64,000 nucleotides of DNA, taken from the sequence record OR352953.1; one strand, 5' to 3'. Below, one piece after another: positions 14,176-48,914 of this stretch; positions within the stretch are counted from its first letter, which is position 1, and the number at the start of each line of letters is the position of its first letter. Both the position numbers and the translations under genes were made by a program. The notes under the pieces were generated by a model. It made no database searches, was not told the DNA's origin, and saw only the letters and a list, made by a program, of their open reading frames with translations. Origin of the DNA: Escherichia phage AV123.

Positions 14176-14382
14176 CAAAATTATTTAAAGTTTTTACAGA
14201 TTTTTGGATACAAATTTTGAAAATGAAAAGTTCAAGTTTGGTCAAAATTATTTAAAGTTTTTGTATGTATTTCTATCCAGATTTTGAAAATGAAAACTTC
14301 AATTTTTTAAAAATTCCCCAGTTTATTTAAAGTTTTTTTGCCTTTTTCCGTAGAAAAATCAAAAATGAAAAGTTCAATTTCG
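14176..14382. repeat. three tandem ~65 bp AT-rich direct repeats
   Basis: units at 14176, 14243, 14320 sharing ATTTAAAGTTTTT...ATTTTGAAAATGAAAAGTTCAA. Confidence 0.7.
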
Positions 14383-25392: not shown

Positions 25393-25801
25393 CTTAACTT
25401 AAGACCATCTAACCTATAAAATAATAAGTTATCTAACTAAATTAAAACTAATTATCTCACCTTTATTTATAACTTACTGTTACTATCTCATTGATAACAT
25501 TGTATTAAACAATAATAACTAATATAAATCATTACTAAGCTAAATATAATCTATCTAACCCTTAAAACTACAATTATAATCTATCGAATTGTTGCACAAA
25601 GTAACTATTAAATTGTTAGTAACATTACTAAATAATTCACATCCTATCTATTTATGATCTAATCTTTACCTTCCTATCTATTACTTAGATAATCATTTCA
25701 TACAGTAACCATTTCATGTAGTAATCATTCCATACAATAACTATAACAAGAAATATAATTCGCAAGCGTATCATTAGCAGCCTATGCCGGACACATAGGC
25801 G

Positions 25802-38951: not shown

Positions 38952-39764
38952 TTACTTAGTCAAATGATCTTCTATCATTTTTATGAAAGCAGGATTGCTA
39001 AAAGCATCTGCTGCCTTTTCTCTATAAACAAAGACTCCTCTATCTTCGTAAAGAAGAGTTTCTTCGTAATTAATTCCTGGGTTAACAACAATCATTTTTG
39101 TACCCATAGTAAGTGCAGGGAATAATTCCCAATTAAAATTGATAACTTGGTTTGAACATCCTACTACAACAACCAAATCTTGCATGGTCAAAGTATCAAA
39201 CAAGTGAGCCATATCTGCATACAAAGGTGCAGCCTCACCAAAAAATACAACATTAGGCTTCACCCAGTTATAATCATCTATGTTTATACTATTGTAACCA
39301 ATGTCTACCAGTGTTTTGTAATCTCCAGGATGCATACGGTAAACTACTTCAGGGAGATACCCGTGCACGTGAATAACAGAATCCCTGTCCACACCTGCTC
39401 GCTCTAGTAGATCATCGACGTTTGTTGTCAAGTTTACTACTTGGTTAGGATATTCCTTAAACCACTTTGCTATTTGAATATGTGCAGCATTAGGTTGTAC
39501 ATCTTTAAGCTCAACACGTCTTTTGTTATAAAATTCGTGTGTTTTGGCATATAAGTCCATACCGTTCTCGTCTACACCACCGACCACTGGAAGATCTGGA
39601 GATGTTCTCACACGATAACCTGCTTGGAAAGCTCCAATATCGCAGACCTCTTCTAAGTCATATTCTTCCCATAAGGCACGACCACTATCTGTGTCTGTTC
39701 GGAACGTTCGAATCCCACTGTCTGCACTTAAACCTGCGCCACTAACAAAAATTACTCTTCGCAT
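38952..39764 (-). CDS. Sir2-family NAD-dependent deacylase/ADP-ribosyltransferase-like protein
   Basis: GAGLSADSGIRTFR, TTNVDDL, HVHG, VVVVGCS sirtuin motifs; 270 aa. Confidence 0.7.
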   Translation of the reverse strand: MRRVIFVSGAGLSADSGIRTFRTDTDSGRALWEEYDLEEVCDIGAFQAGYRVRTSPDLPVVGGVDENGMDLYAKTHEFYNKRRVELKDVQPNAAHIQIAKWFKEYPNQVVNLTTNVDDLLERAGVDRDSVIHVHGYLPEVVYRMHPGDYKTLVDIGYNSINIDDYNWVKPNVVFFGEAAPLYADMAHLFDTLTMQDLVVVVGCSNQVINFNWELFPALTMGTKMIVVNPGINYEETLLYEDRGVFVYREKAADAFSNPAFIKMIEDHLTK

Positions 39765-40360: not shown

Positions 40361-40972
40361 TTATACCAGACTTTTAAGGTACTTGTCAAGGGCTTCTTGA
40401 TCACCTTGACAAACATAGCAACGGAAGTCTTGAGCAGAAGGTTCTTTGTCCTCGTCCCAATCCCAATAGACAGTACCTTTATAGCGTGAGCCTGGGAACT
40501 CGAAGTATGCCACATGAGTAATATGGTGTGGGCCACCCCAAAATTCTGTAAAAGTAAATTGAGGATACGCTGCTTTAACTGTATTCTCAAACCAAGTTTT
40601 ACGATCTAATGCTTCGTTTATAAAATAAGCATGGCGTTCCATTTCATCCCAATCTTTCCAAACGCATTTTTCATCCAGAGAAAAAACAAAATCTTCACTG
40701 TTAAAATCGTCTGTATCTGATTCCAAAATATCATAATCATGTGCACTAGGTATCCACCATCCAGCTTCTAATAGTGCTTTTGCAGGTACAAAACCTTTTT
40801 CAGCATATTGATCAAATTCTTTTACTCTACGTACAGTGCAGTATTCATCTTCACCACCAATGTCCAGTAGACAAGCACCTTTGCGTCTTGCTGCAAGACC
40901 ATGTGTATCAAAAACTACAACACTACCTTCACCGTCTTCACGATCTACTTGATATGCAACTTTTTGAGTCAT
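40361..40972 (-). CDS. hypothetical protein
   Basis: 203 aa; GGGGG RBS. Confidence 0.6.
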   Translation of the reverse strand: MTQKVAYQVDREDGEGSVVVFDTHGLAARRKGACLLDIGGEDEYCTVRRVKEFDQYAEKGFVPAKALLEAGWWIPSAHDYDILESDTDDFNSEDFVFSLDEKCVWKDWDEMERHAYFINEALDRKTWFENTVKAAYPQFTFTEFWGGPHHITHVAYFEFPGSRYKGTVYWDWDEDKEPSAQDFRCYVCQGDQEALDKYLKSLV

Positions 40973-40973
40973 A

Positions 40974-41111
40974 TTACCCCCAATGTATATGGGAAATTAA
41001 CCAAAAGATAAATTCCCAAAAACACCAACCAAGAAAAGTTAATGGAATTATAAAGGCTATCAGAGCAGTCTTCCAGCCTTTCCACAATGTTTCCACTATT
41101 CCTCCATACAT
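40974..41111 (-). CDS. small membrane protein (45 aa), tentative
   Basis: hand-translated; overlaps 3' end of methyltransferase gene by 16 nt; weak RBS. Confidence 0.3.
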   Translation of the reverse strand: MYGGIVETLWKGWKTALIAFIIPLTFLGWCFWEFIFWLISHIHWG

Positions 41112-42085
41112 TTAAGAATATGTGCAATGACAGGTATAGTCCAACCGTTACCTAACATCTTATATGCTTGTGTGTTACTACTCACTTTAAAGTAGTCATC
41201 TGGCACACCTTGCAAACGGCAACACTCTTTAACGGTTAACTTTCTATAATGTACGCCTTCACTCAATTTTTCAAAAGCATCTAAATATCTTCCAGGTGGA
41301 ATGTAAGCTAATAGTACGTCTTTCGGCACAGTCGTGAGGCAACGAGTTTTTTCACTGTCCTGAACTTCCAAACAATGTACCAAACGATCAGTTTTAGATG
41401 TACTACGTTTGCCATTTTCATTAATTCTACGCCCATATATTGCTGCTGGATAAAAAACCAGTTGTCTGCGACTCTTTTCAAAATACTGTTCTATATTGCC
41501 ACCTTTGGCATAATTTGCATCTATGCAATAAGCCTTATCTCTGTCTACAATACTATCATCTTCAATGATATCTTGCAATACTTCATTGGTAATCTCCCAG
41601 GGTTTTATTTCCCAGTTGCACCAGTATAAACGTTGTCTATTCTGTGCCGTGAAATCTGCGGAGTTAATGAATACGGGATCAACACCTAAGTAACTTGTGA
41701 TCACGTTTTCCCACTCCACTTTCATCTTAACGTTTTCAAGCATGAACTTAACATTAGGGTTAAACTTTTTAATATGTTCAAGAATTTCAACATATTCGAA
41801 GAATAGCTTAGATCGCGGATCTTGAAAGTTCAAACCCTTACCAGAAGAAGAGAAGCCTTGACACGGACTACCACCTAACAAAAGATCAATTTCTCCCCAC
41901 GGGATATCCCATTCTCTCCATTTTGTAACATCACCTAACTGAATAATATCTGGAAAATTTGCTTGGCTTTCAGCTATGGCAAATTTGTCTAATTCTGAAG
42001 CATAATATGTATCTACTTCAATACCTGCACTTTTTAGCGCAAGCATTCCTCCTGACATACCATCAAAAAGACTTAAAACTTTCAT
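41096..42085 (-). CDS. DNA cytosine-5 methyltransferase
   Basis: motif I LFDGMSGG, motif IV GGSPCQGFS, motif VI ENV; 329 aa. Confidence 0.85.
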   Translation of the reverse strand: MKVLSLFDGMSGGMLALKSAGIEVDTYYASELDKFAIAESQANFPDIIQLGDVTKWREWDIPWGEIDLLLGGSPCQGFSSSGKGLNFQDPRSKLFFEYVEILEHIKKFNPNVKFMLENVKMKVEWENVITSYLGVDPVFINSADFTAQNRQRLYWCNWEIKPWEITNEVLQDIIEDDSIVDRDKAYCIDANYAKGGNIEQYFEKSRRQLVFYPAAIYGRRINENGKRSTSKTDRLVHCLEVQDSEKTRCLTTVPKDVLLAYIPPGRYLDAFEKLSEGVHYRKLTVKECCRLQGVPDDYFKVSSNTQAYKMLGNGWTIPVIAHILKCMEE

Positions 42086-42087
42086 TA

Positions 42088-42498
42088 TTACTTCTTCTCC
42101 TTAACACTAGCTGGTAATTCTGCCTTGAGGCAGAAGTTTAAACGGTAAGCCTCATTCTCATTTAAAAGTACAGATTCACACGATAACCAGAACAAGAGAT
42201 CCTCAATACTAGGACTGTTAAGCCAACAGTGCAGAAGAGAATGTTGTTCTATATCAATGTAATTTAGTAACAAGGCTTGTAAGGCGTAACTAGTTCCTGT
42301 CGTTTTTGCTTTTTCAAGGATGATATTGTGTTTATTAACAACTTTCTTCCTAAGACCAAACCATTTATTAACAACAACAGTCTCTTCTTGTAGTTGTTTT
42401 CTTATTTTCTCACATTCTTTAACTACAATCTGCATCTTATCCACTGCTGATTGAAGTTGTTCTTTTGTTGGGTTTACAAAATAATCACTATAATACAT
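42088..42498 (-). CDS. hypothetical protein
   Basis: 136 aa; GAGGAG RBS. Confidence 0.55.
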   Translation of the reverse strand: MYYSDYFVNPTKEQLQSAVDKMQIVVKECEKIRKQLQEETVVVNKWFGLRKKVVNKHNIILEKAKTTGTSYALQALLLNYIDIEQHSLLHCWLNSPSIEDLLFWLSCESVLLNENEAYRLNFCLKAELPASVKEKK

Positions 42499-42551
42499 GC
42501 TAATCTCCTCTTCTGTTTTTCTGTAGTTTATTCGAAAAAACTGGTGTTGTC

Positions 42552-42578
42552 AACAAAAAACCCGCCGAAGCGGGTTTA
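42552..42578 (-). terminator. rho-independent terminator (minus strand)
   Basis: AACCCGCTTCGGCGGGTT then TTTTTT on minus strand. Confidence 0.65.
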
Positions 42579-42580
42579 TA

Positions 42581-42838
42581 TTATTCTACAGGAACTTCTT
42601 CACCAAAAGAAACTTCTAAACGGAATGCTTTACTTTCAATACACTCACTACCTTTTAGAAAATCAAATTGCACTATAGACTGACTTAATAGGATAGATAG
42701 AATCACATCGCAATCTTCACTAGGAGCTAGATGTTTGTATTCTTCCTTCAAGGTAACATCATAAAAACATAAATCCCCTACTCCTAGTTCATCCCATCCT
42801 TCCCACGCATCTACAAAGTTAAACTCTAAACCTTTCAT
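42581..42838 (-). CDS. hypothetical protein
   Basis: 85 aa; GAGGAGG RBS. Confidence 0.55.
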   Translation of the reverse strand: MKGLEFNFVDAWEGWDELGVGDLCFYDVTLKEEYKHLAPSEDCDVILSILLSQSIVQFDFLKGSECIESKAFRLEVSFGEEVPVE

Positions 42839-43359
42839 ACAACCTCCTCGTAGTTGTTATTGTGTTTTACTGTCTCAACATACAATAAAGATTCCATCTG
42901 TAATACATTACCAGAAATAATAAACCCATAAGCCATTTCAGATGTGTCTATATCATATGCCCCGTCTTCCGGTTTAGCAAAGTGTAAAACTATTTCATCC
43001 GGGTTTTCTTCATCCCATAGTTTAGAAATTTTCCGAACCAGAATGTTAGCTAAAATAGTTGACATTCGGGATAAAGCTGTATCCTCATATCTTTTAAAAC
43101 CTAGCCAATAGAGGTTAAGAATTTCTACTTCTTCTTGTGTTAAGTTTTTGTCTAAAGTAATCAGATCTGTAGAGCACGGCGTTTTTGTTGAACCTACTGT
43201 TACAAAACCTGGAGTGTTATGAAAAACAATCTTAACTTTATCACGTATAAAGTTTAAACCTTGTGCCTCAACTATATATTGTATTGTAGGTACAATATCG
43301 TTTGTTACATCAATAAAACTATCTTTAATGACGCTTATATTATTTCTGGACAAGACCAT
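42835..43359 (-). CDS. hypothetical protein
   Basis: 174 aa; AGAGGAGA RBS. Confidence 0.55.
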   Translation of the reverse strand: MVLSRNNISVIKDSFIDVTNDIVPTIQYIVEAQGLNFIRDKVKIVFHNTPGFVTVGSTKTPCSTDLITLDKNLTQEEVEILNLYWLGFKRYEDTALSRMSTILANILVRKISKLWDEENPDEIVLHFAKPEDGAYDIDTSEMAYGFIISGNVLQMESLLYVETVKHNNNYEEVV

Positions 43360-43918
43360 TCTCCTCTAAAATAGGCTTAATAAACTCGAAAATTTGTTTT
43401 TTACTTTTACCTCTAATATTAAAACAAGGAACATTAAACTTTTTAGCCAACATCCAAGCTGTTCTTGTACCACCTAAAGGATCTCCATTTTTATCTGTAT
43501 TTGCACAAGCTAAAAGAAAACAAGATGGTTTTGGATTCTCAAGATCTCTGCCAAGAACTTGGTGGATATTCCTTTGATGTAATTTTTTAGCACCTTGAGA
43601 TAATCTGTCCCAAGCCGGATGCAATTCTTTTGCATATTGTAAGGTTAAAGCATAGTTTACACTATCTGGTCTGTCAAGAACAATAACCTCTCCCTCTATT
43701 TCATTACCTTTAAACGAGAGCCAAGGGATGTATATTTCTTTCTTTGTATTGTTCCCACTATCATATACCCCGCATTCAAATGCGGAATCTGCACCTTCTG
43801 CTTTACCAGATCGCAAAATGAACCATGTAGATAACCATTTTGCAACAGATACCATAGTATCCCATTCTTCGTCTGTAATATCTCTGCTACCAACACCTGT
43901 GTAGAATAAATCGCTCAT
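43340..43918 (-). CDS. DprA/Smf-like Rossmann-fold (SLOG-type) protein
   Basis: GVGSRD...SGKAEGADSAFECG resembles DprA SGgA.G.D motif; start reset to ATG 43916-43918 (AAGGAG RBS). Confidence 0.4.
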   Translation of the reverse strand: MSDLFYTGVGSRDITDEEWDTMVSVAKWLSTWFILRSGKAEGADSAFECGVYDSGNNTKKEIYIPWLSFKGNEIEGEVIVLDRPDSVNYALTLQYAKELHPAWDRLSQGAKKLHQRNIHQVLGRDLENPKPSCFLLACANTDKNGDPLGGTRTAWMLAKKFNVPCFNIRGKSKKQIFEFIKPILEENGLVQK

Positions 43919-43928
43919 GGTTTTCTCC

Positions 43929-44249
43929 TTAACAAGTAATATTGGGAGTAACAATTGGATTAACAATTGGAGTAATAGGGTACGTAAACCAAGGGCTTCC
44001 AATTTCCCAAGGATTATAAGGTCTACGAGGATCAAATGGGGGAGTTACTTCAGGCTTTTTCCAAATCTCCGCTAGTTGTTTCTTCCATTTATCCCTTGCT
44101 GTCTCATTATCTTCATCCAACTGTTCATCATTATCTTTTATTTCTGGTTTTGGAAATAAAAGCTCTTTGACTAACTCAACATCTTCCGTCTCAATAGTAG
44201 TTTCTTTCGTAAGTTCTCCTACTGTTTCTTTAATTGTGATTTTATACAT
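43929..44249 (-). CDS. hypothetical protein
   Basis: 106 aa; GAGGAGG RBS. Confidence 0.55.
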   Translation of the reverse strand: MYKITIKETVGELTKETTIETEDVELVKELLFPKPEIKDNDEQLDEDNETARDKWKKQLAEIWKKPEVTPPFDPRRPYNPWEIGSPWFTYPITPIVNPIVTPNITC

Positions 44250-44992
44250 TAGTCCTCCTCTAAAGTAGAATAAAATTGTAACGTATTTGAATCATCAAAA
44301 TATGCAAAGGTTAAATTACCATTGAAGCAAGATCCTGTGTCCATATATACCCTATTACTGCTAATCACAGGTTTAGGAACATAAGAATGCCCGTGAAATA
44401 CATAATCTACTCCTGAAACCCTAGGAAGAAGAATTCCTTCAAGTGCGCAATCTATCATATCACGATCCCACATTAAAGATTCTGTGAATCGAGAAACTTG
44501 CTCTTTATTCATATTCAAACAAAATGGCAAAACTTCTGTCACTGGTAAATGTTCCAAAACTGAAGGATACCCACCGTGAATAAAGCCTAGTTTCATATTA
44601 CGATAATTGACAACAAGTACAACAGGTAAATCTTCTAGCATCAAAGCAAGAGCAGTTGCACCCTCTTCTCCACACTCGTCTAGAACTGTATGGCCTCCGT
44701 TCTGAAACCAACATTCGTAATATCGTCTATCACCTTCTAGCAACCCTTTAATCATCATATCTTCATGATTTCCACGAATACCATAACGATTTAGCTTTCT
44801 GGTGAATTCAACAACACAACGAAAATTCTGCTTGCCGCGATCTGTAAGATCTCCTAAAGATACAACAACATCTTGATCTCGGATACCTAAAGTATTAACA
44901 CCTTTCTGGTACAAATCAAAGCAACCATGTAAATCACCAATAATAAACAGGTCTTGATCATCTTTTACACTAATTTCTTGATATACTAGCAT
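44249..44992 (-). CDS. lambda-type Ser/Thr metallophosphatase
   Basis: GDLHG, GDLTDRG, GNHE motifs; start reset from TTG to ATG 44990-44992. Confidence 0.8.
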   Translation of the reverse strand: MLVYQEISVKDDQDLFIIGDLHGCFDLYQKGVNTLGIRDQDVVVSLGDLTDRGKQNFRCVVEFTRKLNRYGIRGNHEDMMIKGLLEGDRRYYECWFQNGGHTVLDECGEEGATALALMLEDLPVVLVVNYRNMKLGFIHGGYPSVLEHLPVTEVLPFCLNMNKEQVSRFTESLMWDRDMIDCALEGILLPRVSGVDYVFHGHSYVPKPVISSNRVYMDTGSCFNGNLTFAYFDDSNTLQFYSTLEED

Positions 44993-45318
44993 CAACTCTC
45001 CTCAAAATCCATAAGTATAAAGATATTAACTTTACCTTCTATATTATGTTCTACAACAAGATCTGCAAATTCTTTGTAGGCTTTTTCTTCTATTTGTTCA
45101 ATGTGAGACGCTACATCTTTGTATATAGCGTCACCATCTACTTTAACAAGGAGGAATAGAGATCTTACTTCAATCTCTTTATTTTTGCGGGGTAGAAAAT
45201 CGACGGCTTCTTGTATACGCCAGCCGAGATACCCTGGAGTCCTTTGAATATCCTCCAAATGACTTTCTAAGATTTCCCTTCCTTTGTCTATTAAAGCCTG
45301 TTCTGTCGTTATTTTCAT
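44992..45318 (-). CDS. hypothetical protein
   Basis: 108 aa. Confidence 0.5.
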   Translation of the reverse strand: MKITTEQALIDKGREILESHLEDIQRTPGYLGWRIQEAVDFLPRKNKEIEVRSLFLLVKVDGDAIYKDVASHIEQIEEKAYKEFADLVVEHNIEGKVNIFILMDFEES

Positions 45319-45328
45319 CCCCTTCTCC

Positions 45329-45901
45329 TTAATGTGTTAATGAAACTGCGTAGCTAAACACAGGTTCAGATATTACATCGGCTACAGTAATAAAAACGTC
45401 TTCGTCTTGAGTTGTTTCTACACGACATACAGTTACACCATTCACCACAAATTCAACGCAATGTGGAATATCTTCACAAACGAAGGTAGTGTAAGTAACA
45501 CCCAAAGCATCATACAAAGATTTAACAGTGTTTGCAAGTGCCGCAGTTTCTTCTTTTTCTGAGACAATGAATGCTGTAACAATAAGATTGTTTGCATAGT
45601 TTAAACTGTCCTCTATAGCCAATGATTTACAAGGTAGTAATGCAAAATATTTACCTGGTTTAATCAGACCTGCTTCCCATTGATTCAAAATTGCCTGGGA
45701 TGGTTTAGTAATATAAAACAGATTTTCACTTGGGTTATCAATATTACTTCTGGCGATACAACGTGAAGGATTATTAATATCAAATACATGATCAAAATCT
45801 ACACAAACAGGTAAACTGAAAGGTGTGAATTTTTTACCTAATAATCCTATGGCTGATAATATGTTTGCTGTGCTTATCTTCCCGTTAAAAGCTAAACGCA
45901 T
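45329..45901 (-). CDS. hypothetical protein
   Basis: 190 aa. Confidence 0.55.
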   Translation of the reverse strand: MRLAFNGKISTANILSAIGLLGKKFTPFSLPVCVDFDHVFDINNPSRCIARSNIDNPSENLFYITKPSQAILNQWEAGLIKPGKYFALLPCKSLAIEDSLNYANNLIVTAFIVSEKEETAALANTVKSLYDALGVTYTTFVCEDIPHCVEFVVNGVTVCRVETTQDEDVFITVADVISEPVFSYAVSLTH

Positions 45902-45912
45902 ACTTAACTCCT

Positions 45913-46116
45913 TTAACTAGCAACCGTAACTTCCGAACTTTCTTCTTTCGTACTGTCTACGATATGCCTGGTGGCAATATACGAGACTTGCCAGTTACCA
46001 TCTGGTGTAGTCTCAATAAGTACCCTATCTACTTCGAGAAAATGCAAAAATTCAACCATCGCTCGCTTCGATAGGAATTGTTTTTTAACAGTCTCCTCAA
46101 AAGATTGAACTGCCAT
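45913..46116 (-). CDS. small hypothetical protein
   Basis: 67 aa. Confidence 0.45.
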   Translation of the reverse strand: MAVQSFEETVKKQFLSKRAMVEFLHFLEVDRVLIETTPDGNWQVSYIATRHIVDSTKEESSEVTVAS

Positions 46117-46125
46117 GTTTCCTCC

Positions 46126-46788
46126 TTATTTAATATTCAATTTTGCACAAAGACGTTGTACCGCTTTGGCATCGAACAAACTCCCACGAATAGTTCTCTT
46201 TCCTGATTCATTCAGATGCTTTGCAATCGTCATATATGGCGTTTTACAAGCTCTGTATGCAACTAAAGAATCTTTTAAAGAAAGCGCAAACTCTCTTGAG
46301 CGTTTTGCTTCTTCCGTTTTCGTATAATCTGTTCTTTTGTATTTAGGGTTTGCTGCACCAAGAAGCGTTCCCTTCGCTTTTGCTACCTTAAGGCTCTTCT
46401 TAACACGATCAGATATTGCACGAGCCTCTTCTTCTGCCAGAACTGCTAAAATATTTATTATCATATTTTCAGCGGAGGGCATAGTTGCTATTCGTACATT
46501 AATCATCTCTAATAAGGTTGCAACAGAGGCTGTGTTACGTCCAAGACGGTCAACCTTAGCAACAACAAGTGTAGCACCTGTTTCTTTGCAAAGATTAACA
46601 GCTTTTACAAGCTCTCTACGTTGCTTCCAATCGCCTTTACCCGAATAAAACTCTGCAAAGCTACCTACAATAGTATAATTTTCTTGTGAATCCAGGAAGC
46701 GTTGAATATCTGCTTCCTGTGATTCTATACCATACTGGTTGCCTTGTTGTTTCTTCTTAGAAAGTCGATGATATAGTACAAACTTCAT
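46126..46788 (-). CDS. serine recombinase (resolvase/invertase family)
   Basis: N-terminal YHRLSKKKQ catalytic-Ser context, resolvase-like core; GGAGGG RBS; 220 aa. Confidence 0.7.
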   Translation of the reverse strand: MKFVLYHRLSKKKQQGNQYGIESQEADIQRFLDSQENYTIVGSFAEFYSGKGDWKQRRELVKAVNLCKETGATLVVAKVDRLGRNTASVATLLEMINVRIATMPSAENMIINILAVLAEEEARAISDRVKKSLKVAKAKGTLLGAANPKYKRTDYTKTEEAKRSREFALSLKDSLVAYRACKTPYMTIAKHLNESGKRTIRGSLFDAKAVQRLCAKLNIK

Positions 46789-46845
46789 AATACCCTCCTG
46801 TTCTGTTACAGGAAGTATGCACTACCTTAATGTTAAAGTCAACAG

Positions 46846-47049
46846 TTAAGTAGTGGTAATATCATCCTCTTGAATACTAGGGTCAACTTCTGCAAAGATA
46901 GCCTCTACAGGAATTTCTTCACCTGCTATTCTAGAAAGAAGCACTGAACCAATAGCTTTTGCGTGTTCTTCGGATTCCGCATAAACATTAGTTCCTGTGT
47001 CTTTTTTCTTAGTTTCGTTAAAATATACCAGATAGTAATTGTATGCCAT
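46846..47049 (-). CDS. small hypothetical protein
   Basis: 67 aa. Confidence 0.45.
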   Translation of the reverse strand: MAYNYYLVYFNETKKKDTGTNVYAESEEHAKAIGSVLLSRIAGEEIPVEAIFAEVDPSIQEDDITTT

Positions 47050-47300
47050 TATTCATCCCAATCGCCGTTACGAGCACTTTCAAGAACCTTGACAACTTCT
47101 GCATACTCTACAGCTAAACCAGCACATACTTCAGCTTGTTTTGCAATTGCTTGTTTAAAGAACATAGCGATTGCAACACTCTGTGTTGTGTGAATGTTAT
47201 CTGCTTTAGTTGATACATGAAGATCAAAATCTTCTTCATCAAAGGTGAGTTCCATAGTAACAATAAATTTCTCGGTCATAAAAATGCTCCTCTTAAACAA
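47049..47300 (-). CDS. small acidic protein
   Basis: 83 aa. Confidence 0.45.
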   Translation of the reverse strand: MFKRSIFMTEKFIVTMELTFDEEDFDLHVSTKADNIHTTQSVAIAMFFKQAIAKQAEVCAGLAVEYAEVVKVLESARNGDWDE

Positions 47301-47802
47301 AATAGAAAGGTTGAGTTAAACCCAGCCTGTTTTTTGGGTCGTAGACGTACCAAGCATATGCTGTCTTATCAGTACCACCTGCAACAAAAGATGGTCGTTC
47401 AGAAAGAACAATTAAATTTGTTGGTGGATTCTGTTTATGGAATTCCCTTCGTTTAATAGACTCTAGGAACCCAAGACGCAACAAGTATATGCAAACGTCT
47501 GCTTCTTTTAAGCTCTTTTGCAAGAACTCAAGTGCAAGTTTGAATGGGGGATTTGTGATTATAATATCCGGCTTAGTATGCCATTCGTGGTTAAAATAAT
47601 CTTTCCCTTCTTCTAACTCACAATATTCTGATCCTTCTGGAAAATGTTGATAAATTGCAGCAGCAGCGCCTTTACACGGTTCTGCAAAAATAAAACCTTC
47701 TTCTTTAAGGTTATTAAAATCTATTACACTAAATAATGCATTTATACATTTTTGTGGAGTAGGATAGTAATCAGTTGGTGGACGATCATACTTATTTGCC
47801 AC
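47293..47802 (-). CDS. DNA N6-adenine (or N4-cytosine) methyltransferase
   Basis: DYYPTP near N-terminus and NPPF motif IV; GTG start per track. Confidence 0.6.
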   Translation of the reverse strand: MANKYDRPPTDYYPTPQKCINALFSVIDFNNLKEEGFIFAEPCKGAAAAIYQHFPEGSEYCELEEGKDYFNHEWHTKPDIIITNPPFKLALEFLQKSLKEADVCIYLLRLGFLESIKRREFHKQNPPTNLIVLSERPSFVAGGTDKTAYAWYVYDPKNRLGLTQPFYFV

Positions 47803-48220
47803 TACTTAAAATCTCCTCTTTTGTGATTTCAGGGTCTTCTTCAAAAACCATAATATCTCTTAAGAACGTTAATTCTTCCATAGATACTGGTATTGTATCT
47901 TCTTCTGTTTTTCGTTTACATAAATCGTCAAGAAAGTTTTTAAAGTTTTCTGACAAATCGTAAAATTTTAACAGTTGATAATCACAGGAGGAGATCCTAT
48001 CTAGTTCTAACATTCTTTCTAAGATATTTTCTGTGTTGCCGTACAACACACGAACTTCTCCGAAAGGGTTAACTGAATATTGTGAAGTTCTGAACCATCC
48101 CTTTTTAGATACAGTGTAACGCTGTTCTGCTAAACTTTCAATAAAATTTTTAGCTCTTTTACAGTTTTGTTCTAAAGAGTAGTAGGCTTTTTCTACAAAG
48201 GTTACAGGTACTGGTAACAT
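47792..48220 (-). CDS. hypothetical protein
   Basis: 142 aa; AGGAGG RBS. Confidence 0.55.
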   Translation of the reverse strand: MLPVPVTFVEKAYYSLEQNCKRAKNFIESLAEQRYTVSKKGWFRTSQYSVNPFGEVRVLYGNTENILERMLELDRISSCDYQLLKFYDLSENFKNFLDDLCKRKTEEDTIPVSMEELTFLRDIMVFEEDPEITKEEILSSGK

Positions 48221-48260: not shown

Positions 48261-48914
48261 TTAATTATCAGAGGACACTTTATCAAGTTTTTCAGAGACT
48301 GTCAATACTTTTTCTTGTGATTCTTTCATTTCTGCTAAAATACTTTCAGCTTCATCACTATCAGGATCACCAGTCAACAGCATACTAATTAGTTGCTCCT
48401 TGCTGAAGTTCAGAATATCTTCCGCTGTTAACTCCAGTTGTTCTTCGATCTCTTCGATAAAAGTTTCACCGCCTGAAAAAGCATCTCGCAGTTTTGCAAC
48501 TTCCATCGCTTCTTCTGGGGTTGCCCCAGCGTCTAAAGCTGCTAAAGCAAAATCTGCCCCACTACCAACAGCATAATAATCTTCAGTTAAAGGATATGCT
48601 CGCGTTGGATTGTTACCCTCGTGCATATAAATTTTACCGTCTGGGTGAACAACTAATGCCACAAACTCTTCATCTTCTTTATCAGGATCTGACTGGATCA
48701 CCAAACCTGGGATTGTCTCTTGTGCTGCTTGGCATTGTAAGTTTTGTTCGAACCAAGAAAAGAAAGTCAGGATAGAAGACAGACGTCCTGCACCACCAAC
48801 AAGGTAATCCCCAATTTTACGCACTTTCTTGAAATTTAAAGTGTCTACACGACTACCTACTGTTACTTTACCATCAGATAGAATTTTGTTATGTGTTGCA
48901 ATAATTGTTGTCAT
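48261..48914 (-). CDS. hslV: HslV-like N-terminal-Thr peptidase with acidic C-terminal extension
   Basis: MTTII N-terminus, KKVRKI, LVGGAG, GSGADFALAA align to HslV/ClpQ pattern; about 45 aa acidic tail. Confidence 0.6.
   Translation of the reverse strand: MTTIIATHNKILSDGKVTVGSRVDTLNFKKVRKIGDYLVGGAGRLSSILTFFSWFEQNLQCQAAQETIPGLVIQSDPDKEDEEFVALVVHPDGKIYMHEGNNPTRAYPLTEDYYAVGSGADFALAALDAGATPEEAMEVAKLRDAFSGGETFIEEIEEQLELTAEDILNFSKEQLISMLLTGDPDSDEAESILAEMKESQEKVLTVSEKLDKVSSDN

Follow-up and report, generated by a model that had tools for sequence, protein, structure and literature searches.

The stretch of DNA considered here, referred to as the window, covers 64,000 nucleotides from Escherichia phage AV123 (OR352953.1). 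It encodes two methyltransferases, a C5-cytosine enzyme of 329 amino acids (aa) and a small amino-methyltransferase of 169 aa that is a putative DNA N6-adenine enzyme [Table 1], both of which appear to be solitary, that is, without a cognate restriction nuclease. As the original prediction held, the two open reading frames (ORFs) lie in one minus-strand block: from ~38.6 kb to beyond 51 kb of the window all genes are on the minus strand, and the GC skew is negative there. The methyltransferase block consists of nonstructural genes of nucleotide and DNA metabolism. A 9-kb query around both genes matched 61 phage records at 95 to 99% identity, the best matches being the Escherichia phages KMB37, EmilieFrey (Bas61), inny, and phi92 (98.8-98.9% over the full query length). 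This comparison places the window in a phi92-like lytic myophage of the genus Justusliebigvirus, subfamily Stephanstirmvirinae. Positions in the EmilieFrey genome are converted to window positions by subtracting 64870. Scans of the window for Rfam families, tRNAs, and tandem repeats gave nothing relevant to the methyltransferases.

The C5-cytosine methyltransferase

The ORF for the 329-aa protein starts with ATG and is preceded by an AAGGAG ribosome-binding site. The protein matches PF00145 over residues 1-327 (E 1.1e-43; 150.3 bits, threshold 22) and TIGR00675 with 141.1 bits (cut-off 100.65). Its motifs follow one another in the canonical order, FDGMSG (7), PCQGFS (74), ENV (117), QNRQR (148), RLQGVP (290), and GNGW (312), with motifs I, IV (including the catalytic Cys75), VI, VIII, IX, and X all complete and a variable region of ~120 aa between motifs VIII and IX. 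Searching the sequences in the PDB retrieves DNMT3A/B, M.HaeIII, and M.HhaI about equally well (E ~1e-23). Family membership thus identifies the protein as a complete C5-cytosine DNA methyltransferase.

The original prediction described this gene as encoding a Dcm-type C5 methyltransferase. Coordinates, strand, and C5 family were correct, while "Dcm-type" can be kept as a loose label only, not as a statement of orthology. The protein does not belong to the Escherichia coli Dcm/EcoRII-type (CCWGG) subfamily: NF007772 gives 29.9 bits (cut-off 710), the alignment is confined to the C-terminal motifs IX-X, and the Shigella Dcm structures match at residues 273-328 only.

With respect to its distribution, the protein is 100% identical to a protein of phage arall, and the gene is present at 95% identity or more in 54 phage records. 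The next level lies below 60%, with relatives, for example, in a Vibrio phage (52%) and in jumbo E. coli phages (~51%); relatives at 55-60% identity are located on other phage contigs among unrelated neighbors. Because identity drops from at least 95% straight to below 60%, we regard the C5 gene as a genus-specific acquisition, confined to Justusliebigvirus.

The small amino-methyltransferase

The 169-aa ORF has a GTG start with a GAGGAG ribosome-binding site upstream. The protein carries DYYPTP (residues 11-16), EPCKG (41-45), and NPPF (84-87), which corresponds to the gamma-class order X, I, IV. Across 45 homologues (42-84% identity), T15, N84, P85, and P86 are invariant and D11, Y13, P16, E41, P42, C43, G45, E62, D68, and Y69 nearly so. 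The amino-methyltransferase with DYYPTP and NPPF motifs that had been proposed for this position is therefore real in its coordinates, strand, and conserved motifs. In PHROGs the protein falls into phrog_799, "DNA methyltransferase" (E 7.8e-57), the sole annotated family to which it could be assigned, and PADLOC returns one weak match to a type II methyltransferase (E 9.4e-5). A search of the PDB sequences with the protein alone gave no match.

This is a very large family: among 1.84 billion representatives, a search at E<=1e-3 retrieved 14,740 clusters at 50% identity. Of the best 150 representatives listed, almost every one is a stand-alone protein of 130-260 aa. In some members a Cys-rich insertion (CxxC...CxC), possibly a nucleic-acid-binding zinc ribbon, separates the RPSF and TD motifs, and one member (P0368) is fused to an N-terminal region of 370 aa. 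Among phages, the small gene is at least 95% identical within Justusliebigvirus, 82-88% identical in Phapecoctavirus, and ~47-52% identical in rV5-like, PVP-SE1-like, and related phages. On these comparisons it belongs to the core genes of the wider rV5/phAPEC8/phi92 group. The C5 gene and the small gene are, judging from their sequences and distributions, unrelated and independently inherited, and they do not form a pair.

The AlphaFold2 model of the small protein, built from the 45-sequence alignment, is confident, with a pLDDT of 90.7 and a pTM of 0.87, and contains a Rossmann-type methyltransferase core only. M.TaqI and CamA occupy the top ranks in a Foldseek search with this model (E ~1e-4).

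Restriction-site avoidance

Site statistics were obtained for a composite phi92-like genome of 146.6 kb, consisting of the window and the EmilieFrey loci L015, L016, and L017. Fifteen six-base palindromes are absent from this composite, each of them expected 6.5-43 times. They include AAGCTT (0 versus 43 expected), CTGCAG (0 versus 31.6), and AGTACT (0 versus 22.8) as well as GGTACC, GGATCC, CAGCTG, and CCATGG. In addition, GGWCC occurs once where 47.5 occurrences are expected, and GGCC, CCGG, CCSGG, CTSAG, and CATG are depleted. There is no avoidance of GAATTC (34 versus 35.7 expected), GATATC (52 versus 52.1), GATC, CCWGG, GCGC, or GCWGC. Site avoidance is the clearer and stronger anti-restriction signal in the sequence, compared with methylation. 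The strong avoidance of GGWCC, GGCC, CCGG, and CCSGG makes it unlikely that methylation protects these sites.

Methylation as a probable, narrow protection of the phage DNA

Self-protective anti-restriction methylation, as suggested by the original prediction, is the standard inference, and orphan anti-restriction methylation has already been proposed for this phage genus in the BME3 paper (PMC12210895). We consider this role plausible but narrow. In the mechanism that we envisage, the 329-aa enzyme would flip the cytosine to be methylated out of the helix, Cys75 (PCQ motif) would attack C6, and the methyl group would pass from S-adenosylmethionine (SAM) to C5 of the cytosine, with the variable region reading a short motif. 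The NPPF catalytic core of the 169-aa enzyme would most likely place N6-methyladenine (m6A) on the phage DNA, within a motif that is short or degenerate. Both enzymes would modify replicating phage DNA, and the progeny would resist host enzymes with sites overlapping the methylated motifs. Such protection would be narrow and would supplement the main, passive strategy, which is the wholesale avoidance of palindromic sites. Here we infer an anti-restriction benefit, target motifs, and a DNA substrate for the small enzyme.

Several observations weigh against this reading. The phi92-like phages Bas60-62 are exceptionally sensitive to the restriction-modification (RM) systems EcoKI, EcoCFT_I, EcoRI, EcoRV, EcoP1_I, and EcoCFT_II (PMC8594841). 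As far as is known, m6A at the target sites blocks all six of these systems. Since systems that are blocked by m6A restrict Bas60-62, the 169-aa enzyme cannot be an efficient nonspecific adenine methylase. The lack of avoidance of GAATTC and GATATC agrees with the published sensitivity to EcoRI and EcoRV. Moreover, the C5 enzyme cannot be linked to a site. A comparison of the site statistics of phi92-like phages with those of phAPEC8, which has a different methyltransferase in the same slot (see below), gave no deducible target motif, because GCGC is not avoided, yet GCGC-containing six-base palindromes are still absent. As to the small protein, no Pfam or NCBIfam model is above threshold (the best are EcoRI_methylase with E 0.041, at a Pfam cut-off of E<=0.01, and an NCBIfam model with E 0.27), it has no target-recognition domain, all 169 residues being taken up by the catalytic core, and its predicted fold fits DNA enzymes (TaqI, MmeI, HsdM) and RNA m6A enzymes (METTL5, PH1948) equally. 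Finally, we found no methylome or restriction-digest record for phi92-like phages or for the genus in the literature.

Broad protection against restriction is absent in phi92-like phages, and any protection is narrow. The published sensitivity to RM systems together with the massive site avoidance leaves methylation, at most, the place of a narrow supplement. Collectively, we consider it fairly probable that the two genes encode solitary methyltransferases that modify the phage DNA and act as a narrow anti-restriction supplement to site avoidance.

The same data raise the possibility that methylation of the phage DNA mainly serves other ends than escape from restriction, either the phage's own processes or other conflicts, such as the timing of replication or packaging, gene regulation, the marking of phage versus host DNA, or interference with host systems that read methylation. 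There is no measurable protection against the six RM systems, and with most palindromic sites already removed there is less for methylation to protect. In this context, a Dcm of Drexlerviridae triggers the retron Ec86 (bioRxiv 10.1101/2023.08.16.553469), and in Drexlerviridae the BASEL authors could not relate resistance to restriction in any simple way to the methyltransferase genes (PMC8594841). However, no evidence of such a role is available in this phage group, and the exchange of the methyltransferase slot between sister genera (see below) fits the turnover of an arms race better than a housekeeping role. We therefore regard this alternative as unlikely.

Also on the minus strand, at ~51.2-54.4 kb of the window, a four-gene deoxythymidine diphosphate (dTDP)-rhamnose biosynthesis operon (rmlABCD-like) follows a glutaredoxin gene (EmilieFrey annotation L004:29-3290). 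The BASEL authors describe this operon as putative dTDP glycosylation machinery with an unknown target, and it provides no restriction protection (PMC8594841).

The substrate of the small enzyme

The fold of the 169-aa protein supports N6-adenine chemistry. It cannot name the substrate, because DNA and RNA m6A methyltransferases match it equally. The earlier designation of the protein as an N6-adenine DNA methyltransferase is accordingly supported for the chemistry, by fold and catalytic motifs, whereas DNA as the substrate is putative. An enzyme like METTL5 or PH1948 that methylates RNA (rRNA or tRNA) and thereby tunes translation during infection would match the fold just as well. In that case, the DNA-acting enzymes of the phage would be the C5 enzyme and a Dam-like enzyme encoded outside the window.

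The evidence beyond the fold makes an RNA substrate rather improbable. In a search of the PDB sequences with the family profile, DpnA-type enzymes, HsdM StySJI, and PacII (E 0.003-0.013) rank ahead of ErmAM (0.06) and METTL5 (0.23), and the match to METTL5 and PH1948 is the weaker one (E 0.23-0.86). Among 40 divergent members, most of the weak Pfam matches involve families of DNA adenine methyltransferases (Eco57I 10, Dam 6, EcoRI_methylase 5, N6_Mtase 5), although MTS is also matched 10 times. We did not accept these as a route to Pfam membership, as all of them are sub-threshold and they are split between families of DNA and of RNA or protein methyltransferases. Distant homologues are encoded in phage replication modules, adjoining other DNA methyltransferases, namely Dam (PF05869), MethyltransfD12, and C5 enzymes. 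Moreover, METTL5 requires TRMT112 as a partner, and no conserved partner gene was found among the neighbors. The flanking 142-aa and 83-aa ORFs were considered as an obligatory partner or specificity subunit and rejected, having no counterpart beside the distant homologues; as no neighbor is conserved across the family, such a partner is not expected. Taken together, phage context and weak profile matches favor DNA as the substrate.

There is also a small chance that the family as a whole has an unconventional substrate or mode of recognition. This could be m6A formation on RNA during infection, action on DNA that is single-stranded or being replicated, or recognition of a very short motif by nothing more than the catalytic core. 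Any of these would explain why the carriers are fully sensitive to m6A-dependent restriction systems.

Neighboring genes and the search for a nuclease

The original prediction stated that none of the neighboring ORFs shows the motifs of a restriction endonuclease. We compared the 20 ORFs between 38.9 and 49.4 kb with Pfam, PHROGs, and PADLOC, the last of which includes models for restriction endonucleases, and none matched such an enzyme, including the ORFs adjacent to the two genes. The whole EmilieFrey annotation is likewise free of restriction enzymes. The recognizable neighbors are a Sir2 protein, a DprA-like protein, a NinI-type phosphatase, a serine recombinase, and an HslV-like peptidase, none of which is a nuclease. 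A type II RM system was thus rejected, no endonuclease having been found with either methyltransferase.

Table 1. The two methyltransferase genes and the other features of the window discussed in the text (window coordinates).
Feature	Position	Strand	Basis and remarks
C5-cytosine DNA methyltransferase, 329 aa	41096-42085	-	PF00145, TIGR00675, motifs; = phi92 gp43, EmilieFrey bas61_0190
Gamma-order amino-methyltransferase, 169 aa, putative DNA N6-adenine	47293-47802	-	Motifs, phrog_799; = phi92 gp56, EmilieFrey bas61_0203
136-aa ORF	42088-42498	-	phrog_16551 (unknown function); stop codon 2 nt before the ATG of the C5 methyltransferase
203-aa ORF	40361-40972	-	Downstream of the C5 methyltransferase; lineage-specific, family of 23 members
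142-aa ORF	47792-48220	-	phrog_15078; overlaps the start of the small methyltransferase by 11 nt
83-aa ORF	47049-47300	-	phrog_14731; overlaps the end of the small methyltransferase by 8 nt
Sir2-family protein	38952-39764	-	PF02146, phrog_2162
67-aa ORF	45913-46116	-	Adjoins the serine recombinase
Serine recombinase/DNA invertase	46126-46788	-	PF00239, E 8e-22
HslV/proteasome-like peptidase	48261-48914	-	phrog_1040; PF00227, E 1.7e-5
dTDP-rhamnose operon, four genes	~51.2-54.4 kb	-	rmlABCD-like
Tandem repeat, 67 bp x 2	14176-14306		In plus-strand small-ORF block
Tandem repeat, 16 bp x 3.2	25690-25741		In plus-strand small-ORF block

Four neighbors of 136, 203, 142, and 83 aa directly flank the methyltransferase genes. 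Neither Pfam nor PADLOC matches the 136-aa, 142-aa, or 83-aa ORF, and the 142-aa protein also shows no likeness to the neighbors of the distant methyltransferase homologues. Against the PDB, the 136-aa protein gives weak matches only, to NAP1-related proteins and a myosin/GCN4 coiled-coil chimera. The 203-aa protein, the only neighbor whose fold was checked, has no nuclease fold. More telling is the corresponding region of phAPEC8 (Phapecoctavirus; window 40361-42498 versus L014:16485-18209), where the flanks are homologous to the 203-aa ORF (68%) and to the 136-aa ORF (24%, gp193). The slot between them holds gp194, a methyltransferase-like protein of 227 aa with FDGSG, PPC, and ENP motifs that lacks a Pfam match and is not similar to the 329-aa enzyme by BLAST. 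Hence, the sequences indicate that the methyltransferase slot was swapped between the sister genera while the flanks were kept. Because the flanks are kept around a different methyltransferase in phAPEC8, they are not expected to be cognate nucleases of the C5 enzyme.

It could still be argued that one of these four proteins is a novel restriction nuclease and that the locus is a phage-borne RM system directed against competing phages or host DNA, since restriction nucleases evolve fast and are often missed by hidden Markov models and since the 136-aa ORF, 2 nt from the C5 start, might be translationally coupled to it; the database searches, the 203-aa fold and its family of no more than 23 members (many of them on contigs of ~145-153 kb, as large as the genomes of this phage group), the coiled-coil and NAP1-related matches of the 136-aa protein, the phAPEC8 arrangement, and the unrelated neighbors of the C5 relatives at 55-60% identity make this very improbable. 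The orphan status of both methyltransferases thus holds in these searches, with no detectable cognate nuclease.

Other genes of the block deserve a brief comment. The serine recombinase, or DNA invertase, is encoded in a strictly lytic phage, and both it and the adjoining 67-aa ORF are missing from the corresponding, syntenic block of phAPEC8. The Sir2-family protein is 69% identical in phAPEC8. Relatives also encode a nicotinamide phosphoribosyltransferase and a phosphoribosyl pyrophosphate (PRPP) synthetase outside the window, and this combination with Sir2 suggests a conflict with host defenses related to nicotinamide adenine dinucleotide (NAD). The gene for the HslV/proteasome-like peptidase lies just upstream of the small-methyltransferase block. 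Outside the block, the two tandem repeats have no Rfam or tRNA match, and the second one lies in the stretch of the window with the lowest GC content (24-26 kb, GC 0.345). With respect to the phage relatives, records named "Campylobacter phage" (A150, C9, C14, and A141, with MG065639.1 among the records) contain genes 47-98% identical to those of this E. coli phage group; the genomes probably belong to E. coli phages and were submitted under a Campylobacter name.

Maintenance of the two genes and further methyltransferases

Both genes are under purifying selection. Relative to EmilieFrey and phi92, the C5 gene has synonymous to nonsynonymous codon differences in the ratios 12:1 and 17:4, and the small gene has 4:1 in both comparisons. 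There is no report of a phenotype and restriction acts on the phage, as would be expected if one or both genes were inactive, decaying relics, but this is highly unlikely in view of the intact catalytic motifs in both proteins, the presence of each gene at 95% identity or more in ~54-55 phage records, the mostly synonymous codon differences, and the good ribosome-binding sites in front of both. Close relatives encode a third, Dam-like methyltransferase of the beta class outside the window (PF01555, E 1.9e-30; EmilieFrey L015:35999-36730), which would bring the phage to at least three; the BME3 paper counts four (PMC12210895).

Relation to known systems

The finding is correct but ordinary, as it is already known: the genes are annotated in near-identical phages and the anti-restriction reading is in print. 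The same genes in the same order are present in phi92 (gp43 and gp56) and EmilieFrey (bas61_0190 and bas61_0203), with 98.8% identity at the DNA level and 98-100% at the protein level. The phi92 record lists both as DNA methyltransferases, and EmilieFrey carries the annotations "Dcm-like C5 cytosine methyltransferase" (bas61_0190) and "putative N6 adenine methyltransferase" (bas61_0203). Like the present annotations, these are purely computational, and there is no difference of substance between them. What the sequence and the published phenotypes add is that, in a therapeutically relevant genus with a broad host range, methylation would do no more than supplement massive site avoidance within narrow limits. 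Moreover, the family of the small methyltransferase is huge and is missed by Pfam and NCBIfam, and we found no biochemical characterization of it in the literature. The question of what a widespread, minimal methyltransferase devoid of a target-recognition domain methylates is of some interest; otherwise the importance is small and mostly a matter of bookkeeping.

Among the classical C5 enzymes, M.HhaI, M.HaeIII, and the catalytic domain of DNMT3A/B share the full PF00145 architecture and motifs I, IV, VI, VIII, IX, and X with the 329-aa enzyme. The latter differs in that no relative of known specificity is identifiable for the variable region that separates its motifs VIII and IX, in that it has no cognate nuclease, and in that it lies outside the E. 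coli Dcm/EcoRII subfamily. Two other solitary methyltransferases of E. coli phages or prophages are likewise thought to act against restriction, the K42 Dcm of Drexlerviridae (CCWGG), which is the Ec86 trigger mentioned above, and M.EcoGII. The K42 Dcm, which we liken to the present enzyme by description only, has 237 aa compared with 329 aa here. M.EcoGII is a nonspecific adenine methyltransferase of the beta class (PMC7544214), and kinship with the 169-aa protein is ruled out by the gamma order of the latter. A nonspecific activity like that of M.EcoGII would also be hard to reconcile with the sensitivity of Bas60-62 to EcoRI and EcoRV.

Compared with METTL5 and PH1948, the gene for the small protein has no TRMT112-like partner gene, and its context is phage DNA metabolism with other DNA methyltransferases. 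Relative to the gamma-class N6-adenine DNA enzymes M.TaqI, the MmeI domain, type I HsdM, CamA, and M.BseCI, to which it is 10-19% identical in sequence, the 169-aa protein corresponds to the catalytic domain only, without their target-recognition domain or specificity subunit.

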